Part shown: in pieces, positions 1-10,471 of the stretch
Layout: each line of letters opens with the position of its first letter
Numbering within the stretch: position 1 is the first letter of the stretch
Assembly: GCA_965203905.1 (NCBI GenBank)
Contig: CBDBDQ010000005.1
Coordinates: forward strand, 7,104,001 to 7,168,000
Origin: Spirochaetia bacterium
GTDB taxonomy: Bacteria > Spirochaetota > Spirochaetia > SZUA-6 > Bin103
Reading direction: 5' to 3'
DNA length: 64,000 nt
Notes under the pieces: generated by a model
What the model was told of the DNA's origin: nothing
The model's database searches: none
Seen by the model: only the letters and a program-made list of their open reading frames with translations
Translations under genes and position numbers: made by a program

Positions 1-2
1 AG

Positions 3-452
3 TTCCTCGCCCAGACCTGGCTGGCCGACCCGCGGCTCGCCATCTGGTCGCTGGTGGTGGTCGGCATCTGGGCCGGCCTGGGTTTCAACCTGGTGGTCTA
101 CCTGGCGTCGCTGCAGGCGGCTGATCCAAGCCTGAAGGACGCCGCCCGCATCGACGGCGCCAGCCCCGGACAGGTGTTCCGCTTCATCACCTTCCCACTG
201 CTGCGCAACACCCACCTGGTGCTGATGATGCTGGGCATCATTGCCGCGGTGCAGACCTTCGAGGTGCCCTTCATCATGACCGAGGGCGGCCCCTACGGCG
301 CCACCACCACGCTGGCGATCGACGTCTACAAGAACGTGTTCAACTTCGGCGAGTTCGGCTACGGCGCCGCGATATCGCTGTTCACCATGGTGATCCTGGT
401 GCTGCTGATCCTGCTGCAGCGCCTGCTCCTGCGCGAGCAGAGGATCGACTGA
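3..452 (+). CDS. carbohydrate ABC transporter permease (5'-truncated by window edge)
   Basis: EAA-loop-like DAARIDGAS motif, hydrophobic helices, GYGAAI C-terminal motif; frame open to window start. Confidence 0.9.
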   Translation, partial: FLAQTWLADPRLAIWSLVVVGIWAGLGFNLVVYLASLQAADPSLKDAARIDGASPGQVFRFITFPLLRNTHLVLMMLGIIAAVQTFEVPFIMTEGGPYGATTTLAIDVYKNVFNFGEFGYGAAISLFTMVILVLLILLQRLLLREQRID

Positions 453-1261
453 TGCTGCGCCGCGAGGACCGGGTGCGCGCCCTCAACACCGTGCTGATGG
501 TCGTCGTCACCACGATTCTGATGTTGCCGGTCATCCACGCCTTCGGGCGTTCGATCGAGCCACCCGGCGGCCTGGGCAACTATCTGCGCGTGCTGACCGA
601 CGTCCGCCTGCCACGGTTCTATTTCAACAGCGTCGTGGTCAGCGCGGGCACCATCCTGCTCACCGTGGCGTGCGCGAGCCTGGCGGGGTTCGCGTTCTCC
701 AAGCTCCGGTTCCCGTTCAAGAACCTGTTGTTCATCATCCTGCTGATTACCCTGCTGGTGCCGTTCACGACCATGATCATCCCGCTCTTCGTGTTGATCC
801 GAGGGCTGGACCTCTACAACACCTACCTCGCCCTGATCCTGCCCCTGGCGGCGTTCGGAGTGCCGTTCCACACCGTGCTCACCGCCAACTACCTGAACAG
901 CCTGCCCAACGAACTGATCGACTCGGCGCGCATCGACGGCTGCTCCGACCTGGGCGTGTTCTGGCGCATCATGCTGCCGTTGAGCCTGCCAGTGCAGGCG
1001 GTGGTGATCGTGCTTACCTTCCTGGGGTCGTGGAACAACTACATCCTGCCGCTGATCATGCTCAAGGACCAGCAGATGCACACCGTGCCCCTTGCCGCGG
1101 TGAGTTGGGCTTACCAGGCGGGCGCGCTGTCCCAGTTCGGTGAGATATCGTACGACACCCTGTTCGCGGCGCTGTTCCTGCTGGCGGCGCCGACGCTGAT
1201 CATCTTCCTGCTGTTCCAACGCGTGTTCATCGGCAGCGTCACCTCCGGCGCGATCAAGTAG
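452..1261 (+). CDS. carbohydrate ABC transporter permease (MalG-type)
   Basis: DSARIDGCS EAA loop, WNNY motif, C-terminal GAIK; TGATG overlap with upstream permease. Confidence 0.92.
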   Translation: MLRREDRVRALNTVLMVVVTTILMLPVIHAFGRSIEPPGGLGNYLRVLTDVRLPRFYFNSVVVSAGTILLTVACASLAGFAFSKLRFPFKNLLFIILLITLLVPFTTMIIPLFVLIRGLDLYNTYLALILPLAAFGVPFHTVLTANYLNSLPNELIDSARIDGCSDLGVFWRIMLPLSLPVQAVVIVLTFLGSWNNYILPLIMLKDQQMHTVPLAAVSWAYQAGALSQFGEISYDTLFAALFLLAAPTLIIFLLFQRVFIGSVTSGAIK

Positions 1262-1271
1262 TGCGGCGCCG

Positions 1272-1449
1272 TCAGGCGCGGGCGGGGTGGATCGGATCGA
1301 CCCATTCCACCTTTTCCGGCTCCTCGGCCACGGGGATGTCCAGGTTCACCACCACCGGTTCCTGGTCTCGGCGCACCAGCACGCACTCCAACGCCTCCTC
1401 GCGGCTGGCGTTGATCGCCTGGTGCGGCACGTACGGCACGTAGATGAAG
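1272..1449 (-). repeat. diverged duplicate of the 3' end of the cupin gene (4087-4267)
   Basis: Translates FIYVP-YVPHQAINASREEALECVLVRRDQEPVVVNLDIPVAEEPEKVEWVDPIHPARA* versus FIYVPPYVPHQEINAS...HPARE*; 6 aa changes plus one codon deleted. Confidence 0.95.
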
Positions 1450-1450
1450 A

Positions 1451-1479
1451 TTGACAACCCGGACACGGAAGCGTACCGT
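1451..1479 (+). promoter_or_regulatory. sigma70-type promoter of the NYN cassette
   Basis: TTGACA (1451-1456), 17 nt spacer, TACCGT (1474-1479). Confidence 0.7.
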
Positions 1480-1484
1480 AGAAG

Positions 1485-1565
1485 AGCATCCCGTTGGGAT
1501 GGTTTGCGTGCGGCCCCGTTGGGGTCATGTTGATCTGGGCCCCACTTCGGGGCCCTTTTCTTTTC
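1485..1565 (+). ncRNA. putative small structured RNA upstream of NYN nuclease (candidate RNA antitoxin or leader)
   Basis: Two hairpins with identical CCC-GUU-GGG apex (1487-1501, 1512-1526) followed by an intrinsic terminator. Confidence 0.5.
1537..1565 (+). terminator. intrinsic terminator between promoter and NYN start codon
   Basis: GGGCCCC-ACTTC-GGGGCCC followed by TTTTCTTTTC. Confidence 0.8.
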
Positions 1566-1578
1566 TTGAGTCTGGGCT

Positions 1579-2250
1579 TTGACTGATTCGTATGCAGGGT
1601 TCATAGATGTCGGCTTCCTGCATGCCGAAGGTGCGAGGAAGATTCGCAAGAAGAGAAGCTCCGTCCGACTCCAGGCAGCGGAAGTCGTACGCTGGCTCCA
1701 AAGCCTCACCCGAACGCCGTTCGTCGACGGATCATTCCTGAGGGCCTATTGGTACGACGCGGCTTTTGGCCCTGAGCATCCGCGTTACCGCGACCAGCGA
1801 AAGTTCCTCGACGCGATCGCGCATACACCGGGAGTCCAACTGCGGCTCGGTCACCTCGCGGAGCATCCCTCCAGATTGGAGAAGCCGGTCAGGCAAGCCC
1901 TGGCCTCCACGGCCTATCGTCTTGGCATCGAGCCCGACCGTCTGACCGCCGAGTTCGATCGACATTGGACCTTTCGGCCGGAGCGCCGACAGAAGGGCGT
2001 CGATACGCTGATCGCGCTGGACATGGTTCGCCTCGCAGGCCGTTCGGTGTTCTCCACCGCCGTGTTGATTGCCGGCGACCGGGATCTGGCGGAGGTAGTA
2101 CGCACAACACAAGACTTCGGAGTACGAGCGCTTGTCGCAACCCCGGACGAGGACAGCGTCTCCAAAGAGTTGGCCCAGCTTGCCGACGAAGTGATAGTCA
2201 TGAACCAGGATGAGCTTGAGAAGATGATGGCCGACCGCCTCTCAGCGTAG
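1579..2250 (+). CDS. NYN domain (PIN-like, LabA/DUF88) ribonuclease
   Basis: FIDVGF N-terminus, YWYDA, QKGVDTLIALD, AGDRDL, LADE motifs typical of NYN; TTG start. Confidence 0.9.
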   Translation: MTDSYAGFIDVGFLHAEGARKIRKKRSSVRLQAAEVVRWLQSLTRTPFVDGSFLRAYWYDAAFGPEHPRYRDQRKFLDAIAHTPGVQLRLGHLAEHPSRLEKPVRQALASTAYRLGIEPDRLTAEFDRHWTFRPERRQKGVDTLIALDMVRLAGRSVFSTAVLIAGDRDLAEVVRTTQDFGVRALVATPDEDSVSKELAQLADEVIVMNQDELEKMMADRLSA

Positions 2251-2277
2251 CCTCGCGCCACCGGCCGGGCGTCGGCA

Positions 2278-2382
2278 ACCCTGTGCGCGGCACTGTTCCT
2301 GCTGGCGGCGCCGACGTTGATCATCTTCCTGCTGTTCCAGCGCGTGTTCATCGGCAGCGTCACCGCCGTCGCGATCAAGTGA
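2278..2382 (+). repeat. diverged duplicate of the 3' end of the permease gene (1157-1261)
   Basis: 97/105 nt identical by manual alignment, same frame, ends in a stop (TGA vs TAG). Confidence 0.95.
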
Positions 2383-2435
2383 TTCGCTCTGCCCATGGTG
2401 TAGTCAGTCCTCGCTTGAGATGCCCTCGGCGACCC

Positions 2436-4013
2436 TCACATGCCCCACACGTCGACCGGCACCGCGCCCTGGCCGCGCCGCTGATGCGCCGAGTGGCGCC
2501 GGAGATGGAATACCTTCTCCTCCCAGCTCCGGTTCTCCCGCCGGTCGATGACGACCAGGTGCCCCGCCTCGGCAGCGCAACGATCCACGTACCTTGCCGT
2601 CTGCTCCACGCCCTCGTCCATGACGCTCTCAAGCCCGTTGTACTCGCGGACCACCTTGCACTCCACCACGAACTCCTGCACCCGGCCTGCCAGCGGCCAC
2701 ACGATCAGCAGGTCGACCCGTCCGCTCCCCAGGGCGTACTCCCGCTCGATGCGGCCGCCGCCGTTCACGATCCGCTGCAGGTACGCCTGCAGGAGCAACT
2801 GCGGCCACGCCTCCTCGTACGCGAAGCGGGTCCTCCAATACTGCGAGTTACGGCGGAAGAAGCTCTGAAACTCCTCCATCAGCAAGTCTGCGTCCAAGCT
2901 GCCGTCCGCCCTCATGTACCGTGGCGGTGACAGGTCCAGCGTCTCCTGCGCCGCCCATGCGAGCTCGCGCGGCAGCACCTCGGCGTAGATCGGGTTCGCC
3001 ACCCGCAACGGCGCATCGGGGGCCACCAGCCCCAGGTCGCGTACGTACGAGATATCGCGGTCCGTAAGGGTGTGCCGGTCCGTGCCGCTCAGCATCGGCT
3101 CGATCACCCGTCGCACGCGATCCTCGCGCAGCTTGTCCGCCAGATAATCCAGGTGCGTCACCCGGTTCACGATCAGCTCCTCGCGGGCCGCGGCGATGTC
3201 GTCCGAGGTCACCGTTCGCGAACGGTCTTCGCACAATGCCTTGTTCTCGAAGCAGGCCACGTTCGCCAGCGCGTTCACCAGCCAGGGCTGGCCGCAGGTC
3301 AGCGTCCACACCGCTTCCAGCGCCTCCGGAGCGAACGCCTGGCCCGTGTCCTTGGTGTGCTGATGCAGCAGAGCCAGCGTCTCTTCGTGCGAGAAGTCGC
3401 CCATCCGCAACGACTTCGCTGCGATGTTGAACGGGCTGCCCGCGGCGCCCATCCGGTAATCGCGCGGGTCGCGCATGCCGCACAGGACCACGCTGTGGGG
3501 GAAGCGCGCCGGGCGGCCGGGGTAGCCGGCGCGAAGCTGTTGGAGCACCGAGAGCAGCGAATCACCCACCAGCGTATCGATCTCGTCGATCAGCAGCACC
3601 AGCGGCCGCGGCGACGCCTCGGCCCAATGCTCCAGTGCCACGCTCAACGCCAGGTCCGGCCCGAACTCGGCGAGGGTTGCCGCCCAGATGTCCCGAAGGA
3701 ACCGGTCGCCCAGAGCAGCACTCGCCGCGTTCGCCAGCGCGGCGAGCACCACGCGCATCGCCCGCTGCACGTCGTCACGGGCGGTGCGGGCGGTTTCTAC
3801 CGTAACGTACACGCACCCGTAGTCGCGCTCGTTCAGCAGTTCGGCCAGCGCCAGCAGCGCCGAGGTCTTCCCCGTCTGCCGTGGCGCGTGCAGCACGAAG
3901 TACTTCTTGTCGCGCACCAAGCCGAGCACCGCGCCCAGATCGATCCTCGACAGCGGCGCGATCAGGTAATGATCGATCGGGTTTACGGGGCCGGCGGTGT
4001 TGAACGAACGCAT
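2436..4013 (-). CDS. AAA-like ATPase with C-terminal PD-(D/E)xK-type nuclease domain
   Basis: FNTAGP start, Walker A APRQTGKTS, Walker B LLIDEID, C-terminal REYALGSGRVDL...VVECK. Confidence 0.88.
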   Translation of the reverse strand: MRSFNTAGPVNPIDHYLIAPLSRIDLGAVLGLVRDKKYFVLHAPRQTGKTSALLALAELLNERDYGCVYVTVETARTARDDVQRAMRVVLAALANAASAALGDRFLRDIWAATLAEFGPDLALSVALEHWAEASPRPLVLLIDEIDTLVGDSLLSVLQQLRAGYPGRPARFPHSVVLCGMRDPRDYRMGAAGSPFNIAAKSLRMGDFSHEETLALLHQHTKDTGQAFAPEALEAVWTLTCGQPWLVNALANVACFENKALCEDRSRTVTSDDIAAAREELIVNRVTHLDYLADKLREDRVRRVIEPMLSGTDRHTLTDRDISYVRDLGLVAPDAPLRVANPIYAEVLPRELAWAAQETLDLSPPRYMRADGSLDADLLMEEFQSFFRRNSQYWRTRFAYEEAWPQLLLQAYLQRIVNGGGRIEREYALGSGRVDLLIVWPLAGRVQEFVVECKVVREYNGLESVMDEGVEQTARYVDRCAAEAGHLVVIDRRENRSWEEKVFHLRRHSAHQRRGQGAVPVDVWGM

Positions 4014-4086
4014 TTTTTTTTGGTCCGGCTTCCTGCGAAGGGTATCACAGGCGCATTCCCGACCTGATGTGTCCCAGCCGGCGCGG

Positions 4087-4557
4087 CTACTCGCGGGCGG
4101 GGTGGATCGGATCCACCCAGTCCACCTCTTCCGGTTCCTCTGCCACGGGGATGTCCAGGTTCACCACCACCGGTTCCTGGTCGCTGCGCACCAAGACGCA
4201 CTGCAGCGCCTCCTCGCGGCTGGCGTTGATCTCCTGGTGCGGCACGTAGGGCGGCACGTAGATGAAGTCGCCGGGGCCCGCCTCCGCCACGTACTCCAGG
4301 CGCTCGCCCCAGCGCATGCGCGCCCGGCCGCGCACCACGTAGATCACGCTCTCCAGCGCTCCGTGGTGGTGGGCGCCGGTCTTGGCGTTGGGATGGATCT
4401 CGACCGTGCCCGCCCACAGCTTCTCGGCACCGGCGCTGGCGCGGTTGATCGCCGCCGCCCGCGTCATTCCCGGCGTCTGCGGCGTGTTGAAGTCCAGCCG
4501 CTCGCTCGTTACCACGCGCACGCCGTGCGTACGCCAATTGCGCTCCGCCTCTGCCAT
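4087..4557 (-). CDS. cupin domain protein
   Basis: GAHHHGALESVIY and PPYVPHQEIN cupin metal motifs; ATG at 4557. Confidence 0.88.
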   Translation of the reverse strand: MAEAERNWRTHGVRVVTSERLDFNTPQTPGMTRAAAINRASAGAEKLWAGTVEIHPNAKTGAHHHGALESVIYVVRGRARMRWGERLEYVAEAGPGDFIYVPPYVPHQEINASREEALQCVLVRSDQEPVVVNLDIPVAEEPEEVDWVDPIHPARE

Positions 4558-5588
4558 CCGCTGTCCCCGCGCCCATCCTACCCGCCGCGCGCTGCAAGTG
4601 GCGACACCCGCGCTCGGCCGAAGGAGCACGCCTCGGCGTATGGCTGGCGTGGCTGGCGGCGCCGACTTGCGTGGGCGCGGGCGCACGGCTACCATGACCC
4701 ATTGTCGGATCACGGTTCCAAGGAGGGCCCCTATATGCCACGCTCCGTTTCCGCAGTTTCGCTGATCGTCATTCCCCTGCTGATGGCGACCGTCCCGCTG
4801 CTGGCCAGCGGTACCGAGGAAGGCGGCGCAGCCGCCGGCGCCACGGGCGGCGCCAACATGGCCCTCGCCATGATCGACGAAGAGCCGTACATCGACCACA
4901 TCCACGCCAGCCCCGCGGCCTACACCGCCGCCACCGGCACGGCGCTCGACACCTTCTACGAGGCGCCCGTGCTGGCCGCCCTGGTGGCCGAGGGCAAGCT
5001 GCCGCCGGTGGAGGAACGGATCGGCCGTGATCCGCAGGTAATCCGCCCGGCGTTCGAGATCGGGCAGTACGGCGGCATCCTCAACGACGTCGGCAGCGAG
5101 GGAGACGCCGGACAGCTCGTCGAGGAAGGGCAGCAGCCGATGGCCAAGTGGAATCCGCCGGCCAACATCTTCTATCCCAACATCGCCCGCACCTGGGACA
5201 TTTCCGACGACGGGCTGGTGTTCACGCTCAACCTGCGCCACGGCATGAAGTGGTCCGACGGCGAGGATCTCGACGCCGACGACTTCGTGTTCTTCTACGA
5301 GGCGATCCTCGCCAACGAGGAGATCAACGCGGTGACCCCCGAGCCGCGCGGCCGCTACCGGCCCGGCGGCGAACTGATGCAAATACGGGTGCCGGACCGC
5401 TACACCGTCGAGTACACCTTCGCCGCGCCGTACCACAACGCCGCCGAGAGCGGCTGGGCGCGGGGCCGTTCCTTCGCCCCGGAGCACCACCTGAGCAAGT
5501 ACCACCTCGAATACAACGACGAGTAAACATTCGGTCTACCGGTGTGGGACCGCTGGACACATCCGGACCGGTGTGCTACGAATGAGGT

Positions 5589-7214
5589 GTGGGAGGGTTC
5601 TGGCGGAAAACGAGTGGCTGCACGGCGGCGTGCCAGAGCCAGATGGACGAGTTGCGGTGCGAGGTAGTAGAGCTGCGACGACAGGCGCGCTATTACCGCA
5701 GGATGCACGGCAAGGCGGTAGCGCGCGAGCAACGGCTGAAACAGAAACTGCAAGCGGCACGGGCCAAGCTCAAGGAACTGCGCCAGCGCCTGCGGGAACG
5801 CTGGGCACGGCGCCGCGGCAGCGAGAAGCGAACCAGGAGTGGCGGCGCTCCTGAGGCAACCGCCGCGCCACCGCGGCGCCGCGGTCAGCAACCCGGGGCG
5901 CCAAGCCATGGTCGGCGCCGGCACGCACACCTGCCGGTACAGGTTGAAGCACACGACGTTGCCCCGGACCGGCGCCGCTGCGCGGCCTGCGGCGCTGAGT
6001 ATCATTCGCACGGCAGCGAGGATTCCGAGCAGTTGGAAGTCGAGGTGCGCGCCTACCGGCGGGTGATCAAGCGGCGGCGCTACCGCCGCAGCTGCCAGTG
6101 CACGGCGGCCGCGGCGGTGCTCACGGCGCCAGCGCCGCCACGGCTGATCCCGAACGGCATCCTGGGGATCTCGATCTGGGTGACGGTGCTGCTCGACAAG
6201 TATCTGCTGTACCGGCCCACGCATCGGTTGCTCGCGGATCTACGCACGCATGGGCTGGATCTTGCCCAAGGCACCGTCACCGACGGTCTGCGGCGTCTGG
6301 CGCCGTTGTTCGCGCCACTGCGCGAGGCGCTGATCGAACGCAGCCGCACGAGCGAGCACTGGCATGCTGACGAGACCAGCTGGCAGGTGTTCGAGGCGGC
6401 CAGCGAGGACACCTGCCAGCGCTGGTGTCTGTGGCTGTTCTGGAGTGCCGAGGTGGTGGTATTCACGCTCGATCCAACCCGTTCGGCGCGGGTGCCGAAG
6501 CAGCATTTTGCGACCGTGACGGGGGGCGTGGTGAGCGTCGACCGCTTCTCCTCGTACAAGCGGCTGGCCAAGGATACCGAGCTGGAGTTGTCGTTCTGCT
6601 GGGTGCACATGCGCCGCGACTTCATCACGGTAGCCCATGAGCGGGACGATCAGCAGGAGTGGGCCGAGCAGTGGCTGGCTGACATCGCTACGCTGTATCG
6701 CCTGAACGACGAGCGTCTTGAGGTGCGTGGTGAGCCCGCGCAGTACGCGGCGGCCGATGCGGCGTTGCGGGCGGTGGTGCAGGCGATGGAAGAGCGACGA
6801 GAGCGCGAACTGGCGCAGCAGCCGAAGCTGGCGGCAGCGTGTGCGAAGGTGCTGCGCAGCATGCGCAACCACTGGCAGGGGCTGACGCGGTTCGTCGAGG
6901 ATCCCGACTTGCCGCTGGACAATAATCAAGCCGAGCGTGCGCTGCGCGGCCCGGTGGTGGGGCGCAAGAACTACTACGGCTCGGGGGCGCAGTGGAGCGG
7001 TGAGTTGAGCGCGGCGCTGTTCAGCCTGTTCCACACCCTCGAACGATGGCAGATCAACCCGCGTACTTGGCTGACCGAGTACCTGAGCGCCTGTGCGGTC
7101 GCCGGCGCTCGCGTGCCTGAAGACTACGAGCGGTTCCTGCCCTGGCACCGTCCCGAGGCGCGCTTGCTGCCCCGCGGCTCACCCGCCAAGCTGGTCGACG
7201 ACCGTGCCGCCTGA
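5589..7214 (+). CDS. tnpC: IS66 family transposase TnpC
   Basis: N-terminal coiled coil, CAAC..CQC zinc finger, HADETSW / SVDRF / CWVHMRR / DNNQAER DDE motifs. Confidence 0.93.
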   Translation: MGGFWRKTSGCTAACQSQMDELRCEVVELRRQARYYRRMHGKAVAREQRLKQKLQAARAKLKELRQRLRERWARRRGSEKRTRSGGAPEATAAPPRRRGQQPGAPSHGRRRHAHLPVQVEAHDVAPDRRRCAACGAEYHSHGSEDSEQLEVEVRAYRRVIKRRRYRRSCQCTAAAAVLTAPAPPRLIPNGILGISIWVTVLLDKYLLYRPTHRLLADLRTHGLDLAQGTVTDGLRRLAPLFAPLREALIERSRTSEHWHADETSWQVFEAASEDTCQRWCLWLFWSAEVVVFTLDPTRSARVPKQHFATVTGGVVSVDRFSSYKRLAKDTELELSFCWVHMRRDFITVAHERDDQQEWAEQWLADIATLYRLNDERLEVRGEPAQYAAADAALRAVVQAMEERRERELAQQPKLAAACAKVLRSMRNHWQGLTRFVEDPDLPLDNNQAERALRGPVVGRKNYYGSGAQWSGELSAALFSLFHTLERWQINPRTWLTEYLSACAVAGARVPEDYERFLPWHRPEARLLPRGSPAKLVDDRAA

Positions 7215-8100
7215 GGCGGTGCGCTACTGCGGCCGGCCCTTCAGCGAGCAGGAGCTGCAGTTGATCCGCGCGCTCATCGCTGAGGACCCTACCCGCCATC
7301 GGTTCGCCCTCTCGAAGGTGGTGTGCGAACGGCTGCACTGGCGGCGTGCCAACGGACAACTGAAGGACATGAGCTGTCGCGTCGCGATGCTGCGCATGCA
7401 CCGCGACGGGCTCATCCGGCTGCCGGCGCCGCGGCGGCGTCACTACAACGGCACGCTGCGCCGCCGTCGTACCGCGCAGGCGGAACCGGAGCTGCCGATC
7501 AGCGCCCGCGTCGATGAGCTGCCCGCGCTGCAGGTACGACCGCTGGCCGATCAGCGCGAAGCGCTCCTATGGCGCGAGTACGTGGACCGCTACCACTACC
7601 TTGGCTATACGCCGCTACCGGGTGCGCAGCAGCGCTACTTGGTCACCTGCCAGCGGCAGGTGCTGGCGGTGGTCGGCTTTGGCGCCAGCGCCTGGAAGGC
7701 GGCTCCTCGCGACCGCTTCATCGGCTGGAGCGTTGCCCAGCGCGAAGCGCGGCTGCACCTGGTGGTGAACAACGCCCGCTTCTTGATCCTGCCTTGGGTG
7801 CAGGTGTGCAATCTCGCTTCCACCGTGCTGGCGCGCATCAGCCGCCGGCTGCCCGCCGACTGGCAGGCGCGTTATGGGTACCGACCGCTGCTGCTGGAGA
7901 CCTTCGTGCAGTCCGACCGCTTCGCCGGTACCAGCTACCGCGCCGCCAACTGGACCCACGTCGGACAAACCCAAGGACGCGGCAAACTCGACGTACGTCG
8001 AATGCACACGCTGCCCACCAAAGACATCTGGCTCTACCCGCTCAGGCGCGACTTCCGCCGTCGACTGTGCGCTCCTCTTGATCCGCCCCCCAACCTGTAG
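7204..8100 (+). CDS. DUF4338 (DruA-like) domain protein
   Basis: YHYLGY, RDRFIGW, VVNNARFLILPWV, NLAS, LLETFV, GTSYRAANW, G-T-GRG motifs; GTG start overlapping the tnpC end is inferred. Confidence 0.88.
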   Translation: MPPEAVRYCGRPFSEQELQLIRALIAEDPTRHRFALSKVVCERLHWRRANGQLKDMSCRVAMLRMHRDGLIRLPAPRRRHYNGTLRRRRTAQAEPELPISARVDELPALQVRPLADQREALLWREYVDRYHYLGYTPLPGAQQRYLVTCQRQVLAVVGFGASAWKAAPRDRFIGWSVAQREARLHLVVNNARFLILPWVQVCNLASTVLARISRRLPADWQARYGYRPLLLETFVQSDRFAGTSYRAANWTHVGQTQGRGKLDVRRMHTLPTKDIWLYPLRRDFRRRLCAPLDPPPNL

Positions 8101-9415
8101 ACCGAATACTTACAACGACGATGCCGCAAGTGTCGCCAAGGAAGAAGGTTACGAGACCTGGATGGACGCGTTCGCGGCCCACCATTCCGACCGCGGACAC
8201 TCCGGCTCGCGGCCGGTGGCGCACCGCTTTCCCGAGCTGCCCACCACTGACACCTGGGTGCTGAAGGAGGCCAAGCCGGGAGTCCGCTTCTGGGGCCGCA
8301 ACCCCTTCTACTGGAAGGTGGACACGGCCGGCAATCAGCTCCCCTACGCCGACGGCGTGCAGGTGCTGGTCGTCGAGAACCCGGCCGACGTGGTGCCGGC
8401 CAAGGCGATGGCCGGCGAGCTCGACTGGCCCAAGAACGAGTTCATGGACATCGCCGACGCACCGGCCTACCGCCGCAACGAGGCCTCGGGAGGCTACCGC
8501 ACCCATCTCTGGCCCAGCTATGGCGGCGCCTTCGCCTTCGGCGTGGTGCTCAACTACACCAACAAGGATCCGGTCAAGCGCGAGCTGTTCAACGACCTGC
8601 GCTTCCGCCAGGCGCTGTCGCTGTCGATCAACCGCCAGGAGATCAGCGACAAGCTGTACTTCGGCGAGTCGGTCCCCTGGGTGGCCCCGGTCAGTCCCAC
8701 CTGGACCGGGTTCGAGGACTGGATGGCGACCCACTATGCCGAGTACGACGTGGACCGCGCCAACGCGCTGCTGGACGAGATCGGGCTGGCCTGGGACGCC
8801 GACCGCACCTGGCGCGTGCAGTCGGACGGCAAGCCGCTGGCCATCGACGGCAGCTACAGCAGCAACCTGCAGACCACCGCCGACGCCATGGAGCTGCTGT
8901 CCCGCTACTGGGCGGCGATCGGGGTGCGGATGGAACCGAAGTTCGTGCAGGGCGAGCTGTGGACGGAACGCGGCTTCGCCAACCTGTGGGACGCCGGCTT
9001 CGGCGGTCACGGGACTCCCGAGGCGGTGGCGCGTGCCGACTACCCGCTGAACCTGATCCCGCCGTGGCACTACTACCACTGCTGTCCCAAGTCCTCCTAC
9101 CCGTGGGGCACCTGGTACCACACGTTCGGCGAGCAGGGCGAGGTGCCGCCGCCGGAGATCCAGCGGCTGTTCGAGCTTGCCGATGAGTGGGCGAAGACGA
9201 AGCCGGGCACCCAGGAGTATCACGACACGGTCAATGAGCTGATCAGGTTGAACGTGGAGAACCTGTACGCGATCGGCACCGTGTCGACGCCGCCGACGCC
9301 GATGATCGTGAACAACCGGGTGGGCAACGTGCCGGGTGAGATCGGCTACCTGCTGATGAGCCAGGTGGAGACCTACAACATCGATACGATCTACATAAAG
9401 AGCTGATGATCCTTC

Positions 9416-9442
9416 GGGGACCTGACCACTGGTCGGGTCCCC
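9416..9442 (+). terminator. stem-loop after SBP gene (attenuator or mRNA-stabilising)
   Basis: GGGGACCTGACC-ACT-GGTCGGGTCCCC 12-bp stem. Confidence 0.55.
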
Positions 9443-9478
9443 CTTGCGATCCGAGTCGAATGGCCGACGGCTGAGGCG

Positions 9479-10471
9479 ATGTCCGGGTACCTGGTCCGGC
9501 GCCTGCTCTACATGCTGCTGCTGCTGTGGCTGGTGAGCGTGGTGGCGTTCACCATCATCCAGCTCCCGCAGGGCGACTTCGTCACCTCGCTCGCGGTGCG
9601 CCTCGGCGAGCAGGGCGAGACGGTCACCCAGGAACTGCTCGACGGCCTGCGCCGCCGCTACGGCCTGGACCAGCCGGCGCACGTGCAGTACCTGAAGTGG
9701 TTCGGCAACGTGCTGCGCGGCGACTTCGGTTTTTCGTTCTACACCAACCGGCCGGTGAGCGATGTCATTGGAGAACGCCTGGCGCTCACCGTGCTGATAT
9801 CGGTCTGCTCGCTGGCGTTCTCCTACGGCGTCGGGATCCCCGTCGGCATCTACTCGGCGACTCACCAGTACCGGTTCGGTGACTACCTGTTCATGGCCGT
9901 CGGCTTCATCGGCCTGGCCACGCCCAATTTTCTGCTGGCGCTGGTGCTGATGTTCGTCGCCCTGGAGCTGGAGATGAGCGTGGGCGGCCTGTTCTCCCCC
10001 GAGTACCTGCGCGCGGGGTGGAGCCTCGCCAAGTTCGTCGACCTGCTCAAGCACCTGCCGCTGCCGGTAGTGATCGTCGGCACCGCGGGCACGGCGGGGC
10101 TGATCCGCATCATGCGCGGCCAGCTCCTGGACGAGCTGGAGCGCCTGTACGTGATCACCGCCCGCTCCAAGGGAGTGAGCGAGGTCCGCCTGCTGTTCAA
10201 GTACCCGGTGCGGGTGGCGGTGAACCCGATGATCAGCACCATCGGCTGGCTGTTGCCGGAGATCGTTTCCGGCAGCACCATCACCTCGCTGGTGCTGGGC
10301 CTGCCCACGGTGGGACCGCTGCTGTTCGTCGCCCTCACCAGCCAGGACATGTTCCTGGCCTCGACCCTGGTCCTGTTCCTCAGCGCGCTCACCGTCCTCG
10401 GCACGTTCATCTCCGACATACTGCTGAGCGCCATGGACCCGCGCATCCGCATGAGCCGCCAGAACGCATGA
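9479..10471 (+). CDS. peptide ABC transporter permease (DppB/OppB type)
   Basis: YGLDQP..QY, GDFGFS, TARSKG, DPRIR motifs. Confidence 0.93.
   Translation: MSGYLVRRLLYMLLLLWLVSVVAFTIIQLPQGDFVTSLAVRLGEQGETVTQELLDGLRRRYGLDQPAHVQYLKWFGNVLRGDFGFSFYTNRPVSDVIGERLALTVLISVCSLAFSYGVGIPVGIYSATHQYRFGDYLFMAVGFIGLATPNFLLALVLMFVALELEMSVGGLFSPEYLRAGWSLAKFVDLLKHLPLPVVIVGTAGTAGLIRIMRGQLLDELERLYVITARSKGVSEVRLLFKYPVRVAVNPMISTIGWLLPEIVSGSTITSLVLGLPTVGPLLFVALTSQDMFLASTLVLFLSALTVLGTFISDILLSAMDPRIRMSRQNA

Follow-up and report, generated by a model that had tools for sequence, protein, structure and literature searches.

How did the 3' ends of two convergent genes come to be present twice in one small region of a chromosome, around accessory genes that no transposase or integrase accompanies? 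The question is raised by positions 1157-4270 of a 64,000-nucleotide (nt) stretch of a Spirochaetia genome (the window, to whose positions all coordinates refer; the genome itself is called G000), where the ends of an ABC transporter permease gene (perm) and of a cupin gene bracket a NYN-domain gene and a gene with AAA ATPase domains (AAA). The perm/cupin junction appears to be an insertion hot spot that bears the scar of at least two homology-anchored insertions, and the locus is probably, though by no means certainly, explained by the homology-anchored import of a diverged allele of the empty junction together with the NYN gene. Read from left to right, the locus consists of perm, a 10-nt gap, a 178-nt copy of the cupin tail, an 813-nt NYN module, a 105-nt copy of the perm tail, the AAA cassette and cupin. 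Its features are as follows.

452-1261, plus strand: complete ABC transporter permease gene (open reading frame, ORF; BPD_transp_1, E 2e-18)
1157-1261, plus strand: last 105 nt of the permease gene, the functional copy of the perm repeat
1262-1271: 10-nt gap between two stop codons, the putative 'empty' state of the convergent junction
1272-1449, minus strand: truncated cupin copy, last 59 codons, a candidate passenger or displaced end, 90.9% identical to 4079-4267
1450-2262, plus strand: NYN module, with TTGACA at 1451-1456, a structured leader at about 1487-1565 and the NYN ORF at 1579-2250
2263-2277: 15-nt stretch, unique in the genome, at the non-homologous joint where the NYN module gives way to the perm tail copy
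2278-2382, plus strand: truncated perm copy, last 34 codons plus stop, a candidate displaced end
2383-4077, minus strand: AAA cassette, consisting of an ORF at 2436-4013 and about 64 nt of its own upstream region with a T10 run at 4014-4023
4078-4086: putative remnant of the ancestral gap beside the cupin stop codon, CCGGCGCGG
4087-4557, minus strand: complete cupin gene (Cupin_2, E 5e-11), whose last 181 nt are the functional copy of the cupin repeat

This gene order and the duplicated perm and cupin ends had been proposed in an earlier account made from the letters alone (the sequence-only reading), and searches for ORFs, Pfam domains and repeats bore both out. The repeat finder returned a direct perm repeat of 103 nt (1157-1259 and 2278-2380, 94% identity), which with the stop codon comes to 105 nt with 8 differences, and a direct cupin repeat of 174 nt (1264-1437 and 4079-4252, 90%), which extends to 1449 and 4267 past a 3-nt indel. 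Since each repeat is found exactly twice in the 7.99-Mb genome, the repeats are not due to chance. Both the perm and the cupin gene are intact. Pfam finds only NYN and AAA domains in the insert, and no transposase or integrase in 1157-4270. The sequence-only reading had gone further, stating that no integrase, transposase or terminal inverted repeat is adjacent; this holds within 1157-4270, but outside the bracketed segment, about 1 kb past the start of cupin, there is a transposase gene of the IS66 family (5589-7214), which looks unrelated to the cassette. A transposon that duplicates its target site was rejected as an explanation: the duplication is about 290 nt long, there are no terminal inverted repeats, and 1157-4270 holds no transposase.

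The window sits in a 7.8-Mb contig of a five-contig genome, and the order just described could have been produced by a metagenome assembler that placed two strain haplotypes in series. The genome is indeed metagenome-derived, with an estimated contamination of 7.9%, and the public runs that hold the stretch, labelled mostly as sponge, coral or marine metagenome, contain strain variants of the locus. We aligned contigs from four public runs, belonging to three studies, to positions 900-4600, noting that contigs drop rare forms. All five junctions are present in these k-mer contigs. The junction of perm, gap and cupin tail is found in X16 record 9 (900-1356, with 0 differences); that of the cupin tail and NYN in X16 record 10 (1338-1515) and X18 record 18 (1338-1535); that of NYN and the perm tail in X16 record 14 (2192-2465), X18 record 19 (1605-2392) and X19 record 25 (to 2315); that of the perm tail and AAA in X1 record 4 and X19 record 26; and that of AAA and cupin in X18 record 23. 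Three of the five appear in more than one study; X16 and X18 come from a single study, possibly that of the source sample, and the joint between cupin tail and NYN is seen there only. Because stacking two alleles cannot yield the joints of NYN with the cupin tail or with the perm tail, we consider an assembly artefact highly improbable.

To what does the 10-nt gap in the left copy correspond? There the junction reads AAG TAG TGCGGCGCCG TCA. The AAA cassette is flanked by AAG TGA T on one side and CCGGCGCGG CTA on the other, and in the metagenome contig L057 the perm end reads AAG TGA TCCGGCGCGG. The gap TGCGGCGCCG is homologous both to T plus CCGGCGCGG, i.e., to the two flanks of AAA (2383 and 4078-4086), and to TCCGGCGCGG after the perm stop of L057; CCGGCGCGG is also found beside the cupin stop in the relative G003 and beside the perm stop in L057. 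Because the left gap is the uninterrupted homologue of the AAA-cassette flanks and of the perm-side gap in L057, we take it to be a genuine empty allele of the junction. By the same comparison AAA would have entered cleanly after TGAT. Direct repeats that could delete AAA precisely were not found at its flanks, either by the repeat search of the window or by inspection of the sequence.

L057 adds a further state. It is 93.5% identical over the operon, its perm has 98% amino-acid identity to the permease of the window, and the permease is followed by the cupin end across a spacer of about 113 nt. Within the spacer (3283-3372) are 30 residues left over from the N-terminus of a DUF1703-type ATPase (63% identity), which suggests that a third kind of cassette once sat at the junction. 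The junction is therefore known in at least three states, namely empty (the left copy), filled with AAA, and with a DUF1703-type remnant. A DNA search of 24 relatives returned no permease orthologue. Cupin orthologues were present at all 11 of the relatives' loci compared, with 81-93% amino-acid identity, and none has such a permease adjoining it. A more distant perm orthologue, in L058 (81% amino-acid identity), has a second perm-like gene behind a GH42 beta-galactosidase gene, which was judged a paralogue within the operon and not the scar of a cassette.

The AAA-filled copy can be compared with G003, a species representative, in which an AAA copy likewise adjoins the cupin orthologue (contig G003:C374, matching window positions 2436-4800 at 86%). 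The AAA ORF and the cupin gene align between the two genomes; the flank downstream of AAA is unrelated, and of the stretches upstream of AAA, 64 nt in the window and 81 nt in G003, only a part can be aligned, around the motif GTATCA(T/C)AGGCGC that both possess. A conserved CGGCGC(C/G)G adjoins the end of the AAA cassette in the two species, and from this end to the cupin stop there are no more than about 15 nt. We take the adjacency of AAA and cupin to be older than the split of the two species and, because G003 also has AAA at most about 15 nt from the cupin stop, the AAA-filled copy to be the older, resident state. This disfavours the alternative offered by the sequence-only reading, a long target duplication followed by a later insertion of AAA.

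Whether the truncated copies are functional alleles or debris depends on how their differences are counted. By the Nei-Gojobori method the perm copies differ at 3 of 29.3 synonymous and 3 of 72.7 nonsynonymous sites, and the cupin copies at 8.5 of 40.3 and 8.5 of 136.7. The combined ratio of nonsynonymous to synonymous differences per site (pN/pS), about 0.33, resembles constraint as long as the changes are not polarized. That several of the perm differences are synonymous, as first noticed from the letters, is correct for 3 of the 6 coding differences; the other 3 are nonsynonymous. We polarized the cupin changes against the 11 orthologues and the perm changes against L057 and L058, leaving out as ambiguous sites 1171, 1196, 1320 and 1388 and the last cupin codon. 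In the truncated cupin copy, which is 86.6% identical to the G003 orthologue, a single synonymous change stands beside 4 nonsynonymous events; two of these fall at sites where all 11 orthologues agree, and the other two involve a base found in no orthologue. The copy also has a unique codon deletion in a conserved motif (PPYVPH to PYVPH). The 4 derived changes of the functional cupin copy are all synonymous. In the truncated perm copy, which retains the ancestral TGA stop, all 3 derived changes are nonsynonymous (F>C, S>A, G>V) and fall at sites conserved in L057 and L058; in the functional perm copy one change is synonymous, and the stop codon is altered. When the two genes are pooled, the nonsynonymous to synonymous counts are 7:1 in the fragments and 0:5 in the functional copies (Fisher P 0.0047). 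To judge from these counts, the truncated copies are now decaying, and the spare tails of 105 and 178 nt are without function. The synonymous excess comes from the working genes while the fragments decay, so the argument of the sequence-only reading, that the differences mark functional alleles, fails as stated for synonymous sites.

It does hold for the stop codons. The perm stop is TAG in the left copy, as against TGA in the right copy, in L057 and in both L058 genes, and the cupin stop is TGA in the left copy, as against TAG in the right copy and in G003. Both stop codons thus differ by two bases between the copies, yet all are still stops. Over the whole stretch from stop to stop, gap included, 6 of 16 positions differ, compared with 20 of 277 in the coding parts (Fisher P 0.0012); 4 of the 6 stop-codon positions differ, and 2 of the 10 gap positions, which alone is not significant. 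A two-step change that preserves a stop would be hard to reach by drift in a functionless left cupin tail and easy if the allele had worked in another lineage, and the left block does look like a diverged, formerly working allele. The perm copies give no polarity: by hand count each has 7 differences in 105 from L057, and neither is closer.

The same data bear on another history, in which slippage during replication, or a template switch, duplicated about 290 bp in tandem and in place (perm tail, gap, cupin tail). The new joint would have captured NYN, and AAA would either have been inserted later into the right gap or have been lost from the left. In favour of this history, the decay of the fragments looks neutral, no other genome comes as close to either copy of a repeat as its partner copy does, the duplication would be tolerated with both genes intact, and the genome is rich in local duplications (172 pairs, see below). 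However, this route requires either that AAA was inserted after the species split at a spot that is filled in G003, or that AAA was lost from the left copy precisely and without repeats. It also requires that a non-functional cupin fragment went from TAG to TGA by two chance substitutions while still remaining a stop. We regard it as unlikely.

The import of a diverged empty allele, which we prefer, would have proceeded as follows. In the ancestral state the perm stop and the cupin stop were separated by 10 nt. On the resident chromosome an AAA cassette would have come to lie inside this gap. In a diverged relative with an empty gap, a NYN module would have been joined to cupin 178 nt before its stop, with a spare cupin tail left beside NYN. 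DNA from the lineage of that relative, carrying perm tail, gap, cupin tail and NYN, would then have recombined into the resident chromosome. Such an event, which would account for every feature of the locus, needs a single exchange by homology, within the perm end, and a joint without homology at 2277/2278, and could have taken the form of Campbell-type integration of a circle or of homology-facilitated illegitimate recombination of a linear fragment. The spare cupin tail would have come along as a passenger, left over from a similar event that had taken place earlier at the cupin end. The mirror order is equally possible, with NYN resident and a segment of cupin end, AAA and perm tail incoming. 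What the data establish is the anatomy, the existence of the junctions, the greater age of the adjacency of AAA and cupin, the decay of the fragments and the recurrence of the pattern described below; the donor, the order of events and a dependence on host recombination enzymes belong to the reconstruction.

The two forms are indistinguishable by their outcome. When a circle integrates by a single crossover of the Campbell type, the segment of homology is directly duplicated on both sides of the insert, and here 1157-1261 and 2278-2382 flank the gap, the cupin tail and NYN; the locus differs from the classical case in that no circle, replicon or origin is evident at it. The small circle and single crossover of the sequence-only reading fit the geometry of a donor with perm tail, empty gap, cupin tail and NYN, but a linear fragment gives the same product and a circle is not needed. 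Since the expected circle joint is identical to the chromosomal joint between NYN and the perm tail, a search of reads for the circle junction is uninformative. As for homology-facilitated illegitimate recombination, the locus has the combination that defines it, i.e., one homologous anchor and a joint of little or no homology, with abrupt ends at 1449 and 2278. The similarity of the NYN module to its copy in the relative G008 stops at 2262 and that to perm begins at 2278. At the joint 1449/1450 there is only 1 nt of microhomology, and upstream of the -35 box the two leader copies of G008 remain alike for about 30 nt beyond the point where the G000 copy departs from them; from its sequence this joint looks illegitimate too.

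If the junction records a general process, similar scars should be present elsewhere. A self-comparison of the genome for local direct-repeat pairs (at least 84% identity, at least 70 nt, 0.3-12 kb apart) gave 172 pairs, 78 of them two-copy. Candidate regions were annotated, 7 and then 14 more, and four were aligned in detail.

Locus a: MR_MLE-type enolase gene; insert, a DUF1703-type gene (AAA-ATPase_like plus PDDEXK_9, 584 aa) on the opposite strand; tail copy of 88 nt, 92%, then a NUDIX gene
Locus b: formate-tetrahydrofolate ligase (FTHFS) gene; insert, 2.2 kb with a 315-aa ORF of no family; tail copy of 167 nt, 95%, then an ankyrin gene
Locus i: short-chain dehydrogenase (SDR) gene; insert, an AAA_14-DUF4143 gene (PADLOC PDC-S01); tail copy of 142 nt, 94%, then a second gene of that family
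Locus c: pyridine-nucleotide-disulphide oxidoreductase gene; insert, 765 nt without a called gene; tail copy of 108 nt, 96%

The sequence-only reading had named the lack of any other cassette with a gene-end duplication as one result that would refute it, and the self-comparison found loci a, b and i. Empty sites are available for two of these: in G003 the enolase gene of locus a runs directly into the NUDIX region, and the ligase and ankyrin genes of locus b are adjacent in G004, G008, G009 and G010. The duplication ends at the stop codon or one base past it at loci a, b and i, and about 10 nt before the stop at locus c. It is the copy on the cassette side that completes the functional gene at loci a, b and i, and the spare copies of loci b and i have 1-nt indels. 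Convergent gene ends, to which the stacking of cassettes had been ascribed, are found at the perm/cupin site and at locus a, but loci b and i lie behind co-directional genes. Genome-wide, 18 of the 172 pairs have a copy that ends within 12 nt of the stop of a long ORF, compared with a mean of 3.2 (range 0-6) in 20 shifted controls, a rough count that rests on a crude choice of ORFs (shadow ORFs in a high-GC genome) and includes paralogues with shared ends. Candidate e (7235490/7238617), for example, was rejected as merely the shared ends of two PDDEXK_9 paralogues, and several of the 14 further regions and of candidates d and k are paralogue arrays or larger segmental duplications.

Some of these regions have features of their own. 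In the insert of locus b a 78-nt stretch (L090 3304-3381) recurs at 91-94% identity at unrelated places in four relatives, and the 315-aa ORF (L090 2316-3270) recurs at 92-93% in two relatives; both exceed the 88% identity of the flanking orthologue. In L122 (G000:C5:5590000-5600500) and L096 (7705000-7715000), several truncated fragments of ABC-permease and other genes lie among DUF1703-type or AAA cassettes and toxin-antitoxin genes. Both look like stacks of repeated events of the same kind; in L096 one of the AAA copies is broken into two ORFs.

Ends flush with the stop codon are left unexplained by in-place duplication, and they raise the possibility that an element bearing a surrogate 3' end of its target gene was integrated site-specifically, with a recombinase provided in trans, or the ATPase-nuclease protein of the cassette itself, as the enzyme. 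Islands and phages at the ends of tRNA or protein genes carry just such a replacement 3' end. Here too there is a diverged direct repeat of a gene 3' end, the functional gene ends in the insert-side copy, and the repeat breaks off at the host stop codon in loci a, b and i, which together are the hallmark of target-restoring elements. The cassette families are also massively multicopy. On the other hand, the inserts here are single genes of 0.8-2.2 kb without an integrase, and no integrase, Xer-type site or terminal inverted repeat was found in or at 1157-4270. The lengths of the repeats vary (88, 105, 142, 167 and 178 nt), no common core site is seen among them, and the NYN module does not have the same boundaries in G000 as in G008. 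The AAA protein, which would have to act in the second version, has no PADLOC or PDB match and a nuclease domain below the Pfam threshold. Inspection of the cassette boundaries revealed no dif-like 28-bp imperfect palindromes, there are no short-range inverted repeats at 1420-1500 or 4005-4095, and the only inverted repeat at 2240-2445 is an 11-nt palindrome inside the perm copy. Site-specific integration is thus a doubtful explanation at best.

The import of an empty allele by homology, to which we return, has weaknesses as well. The donor arrangement (perm, gap, cupin tail, NYN, whole cupin) was not found in any collection searched, and among the contigs of the four public runs, in which rare forms are invisible, none skips the NYN block (about 1121 nt) or the AAA cassette, so that neither an excised or empty allele nor one with AAA only was seen in these runs. 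The perm copies now agree without interruption over no more than 22-24 nt at a time, which is short for a RecA-type exchange. The statistical signal for an imported functional allele comes from two stop codons (the 4 of 6 positions above), and the two cupin copies are each other's nearest relatives (90.9%), which also fits an old in-place duplication. Finally, the flush ends at loci a, b and i fit homology anchoring only if the donor cassette already lay exactly there; this leaves the first insertion at each site unexplained, and the flush ends themselves fit no supported model.

What do the cassettes carry? The NYN ORF (1579-2250) matches PF01936 with E 1.4e-11. The module as a whole (1449-2262) is 94% identical to a copy in G008:C78, which adjoins another AAA copy in otherwise different surroundings; no direct repeats of at least 30 nt flank the G008 copy, on a contig of only 11.9 kb. 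Homologues with 66-72% identity are present in G009 (beside cas genes), G001 (beside a YefM/YoeB pair) and G007. Near the G008 module, at the end of its contig (L026 8800-8890), a motif of about 22-24 nt, GATGCCGAAAGGCGTTGAGCAC, occurs two to three times at intervals of about 60 nt; this may be the margin of a CRISPR array. In another sample an X19 contig lacks 204 nt of the NYN ORF (1903-2108) and keeps the perm-tail joint, i.e., it represents a NYN deletion variant.

The NYN gene is preceded by a promoter-like box and a leader with three hairpins, each with a CCCGTTGGG-like core, that ends in a terminator-like hairpin at 1537-1555 and a T run extending to 1565. The arrangement is kept in 5 genomes (window 1451-1578 and the leader regions of L048, L049, L050, L051 and L053). 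Hairpin 1 covaries, with double changes that keep pairing in 2 pairs among 6 homologues, and hairpins 2 and 3 could pair alternatively, in the manner of an attenuator. A strict sigma-70 scan of 1100-4700 called no promoter; the -35 box TTGACA is perfect and the -10 of the window copy is poor. Rfam gave no match in window positions 1-10000 at E up to 1. Remnants of the leader without the NYN ORF are found in L056 (G008:C267), L052 (G021) and L053 (G006). The L056 and L052 remnants are followed by the same downstream sequence, unrelated to the module, and the G006 remnant occupies the spot where G007 has a whole NYN module behind a molybdopterin-enzyme gene. In architecture only, the succession of promoter box, structured RNA, terminator-like site and endoribonuclease gene is reminiscent of type III toxin-antitoxin systems. 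The protein, however, has a NYN domain and is not of the ToxN/AbiQ type, so that by analogy the module could be a functional counterpart of such a system at most.

The AAA protein has AAA_22 and AAA_35 matches. The label 'nuclease' given to it by the sequence-only reading is weak, as the PDDEXK_9 match in Pfam has E 0.0039 and 17.6 bits against a cut-off of 25.5. Four further copies of the gene at 83-85% identity (83-89% if copies in relatives are included) and some weaker ones are present in this genome, relatives have dozens, often in tandem, with the upstream motif GTATCA(T/C)A common to the copies, and a protein search returned at least 8000 homologues. The AAA protein, the DUF1703 protein and a DruA-like protein encoded nearby had no match in PADLOC, the AAA protein had none in PDB by sequence, and NYN had a weak PADLOC match only (HEC-09, E 5e-10). 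Because AAA lacks a PADLOC match and that of NYN is weak, 'defence cassette' is a plausible label and not a finding. Directly upstream of the AAA start codon the T10 run (4014-4023, A10 on the sense strand) varies in length between strains: two other runs have contigs in which 3 or 4 of its bases are missing.

The arrangement is best seen as a variant of an already known homology-anchored displacement, whose scar recurs in this genome. For arrays of type VI secretion system (T6SS) effector-immunity genes, Rhs loci and contact-dependent inhibition (CDI) loci it has been proposed that a homologous anchor on one side and an illegitimate second joint leave displaced 3' parts in a row (PMC5361080). 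In that proposal, as here, the anchor lies in a conserved gene, the other joint is non-homologous, the resident 3' part is orphaned downstream, and repeated events stack modules. Unlike what is described there, the displaced pieces here are only the last 88-178 nt of ordinary metabolic or transport genes and not toxin tips, and the cargo is a compact module of promoter plus ORF, with the scars of two opposite-strand genes interlocking. For hot spots without mobile elements, turnover is ascribed to double recombination in the core genes on either side (PMC5635113). Such hot spots too are described as exchanging accessory genes at a fixed junction of conserved genes without a recognizable mobile element, with several alternative contents among strains, but a double crossover leaves no duplication, whereas the present locus bears the scar of one-sided events. 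Single symbiont genomes are reported to hold tens of DUF1703 genes (AAA-ATPase_like plus PDDEXK_9), as diverged copies that recombine with one another (PMC6387759). The ATPase-nuclease genes are thus multicopy in symbionts there as well; the passages of that report on these genes do not describe insertion sites or duplicated host gene ends, and the AAA gene of the window belongs to another family (AAA_22/AAA_35). A narrow literature search found no description of short housekeeping-gene tails bracketing compact cassettes, and we do not claim that none is in print.

Many accessory and defence hot spots are described as lacking a recognizable mobile element (PMC5635113), and how single genes enter and leave them is only partly understood. 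The perm/cupin locus and at least three more in this genome keep the scar of entry, a spare copy of the tail of the neighbouring gene. Such a scar could be searched for across genomes, so as to count one-sided homology-anchored insertions, date them by the decay of the spare tail and identify the cassettes that move, and it marks the AAA/PD-(D/E)XK and DUF4143 families of symbionts as the cargo, or possibly the agents, of insertions. More speculatively, and we would not expect it to be so, this sponge-symbiont lineage may harbour minimal mobile cassettes that consist of a promoter and one ORF, have no recombinase of their own, and spread between strains with the last 90-300 nt of the adjoining host gene as homology arm, or with ATPase-nuclease proteins making the initiating break. 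The candidates would be the AAA/PD-(D/E)XK genes, the AAA_14-DUF4143 genes and the NYN module with its leader RNA. If this were true, every hop would deposit a gene tail that is displaced and abuts a stop codon, and where adjacent genes were hit the hops would interlock, as they do at perm and cupin.

Two minor observations concern the surroundings of these genes. AAA genes also occur head to tail: in three runs a spacer of 20 nt separates the start of one copy from the stop of the next, and tandem pairs and triplets are found in the relatives G018, G014, G010, G012 and G009. Beyond cupin in the window, an SBP_bac_5 solute-binding gene is apparently split (4737-5526 and 7874-9406), with the IS66-family transposase gene (5589-7214) and a DruA-like (PF14236) ORF between the two parts; the latter, at 7093-8100, overlaps the end of the transposase gene.

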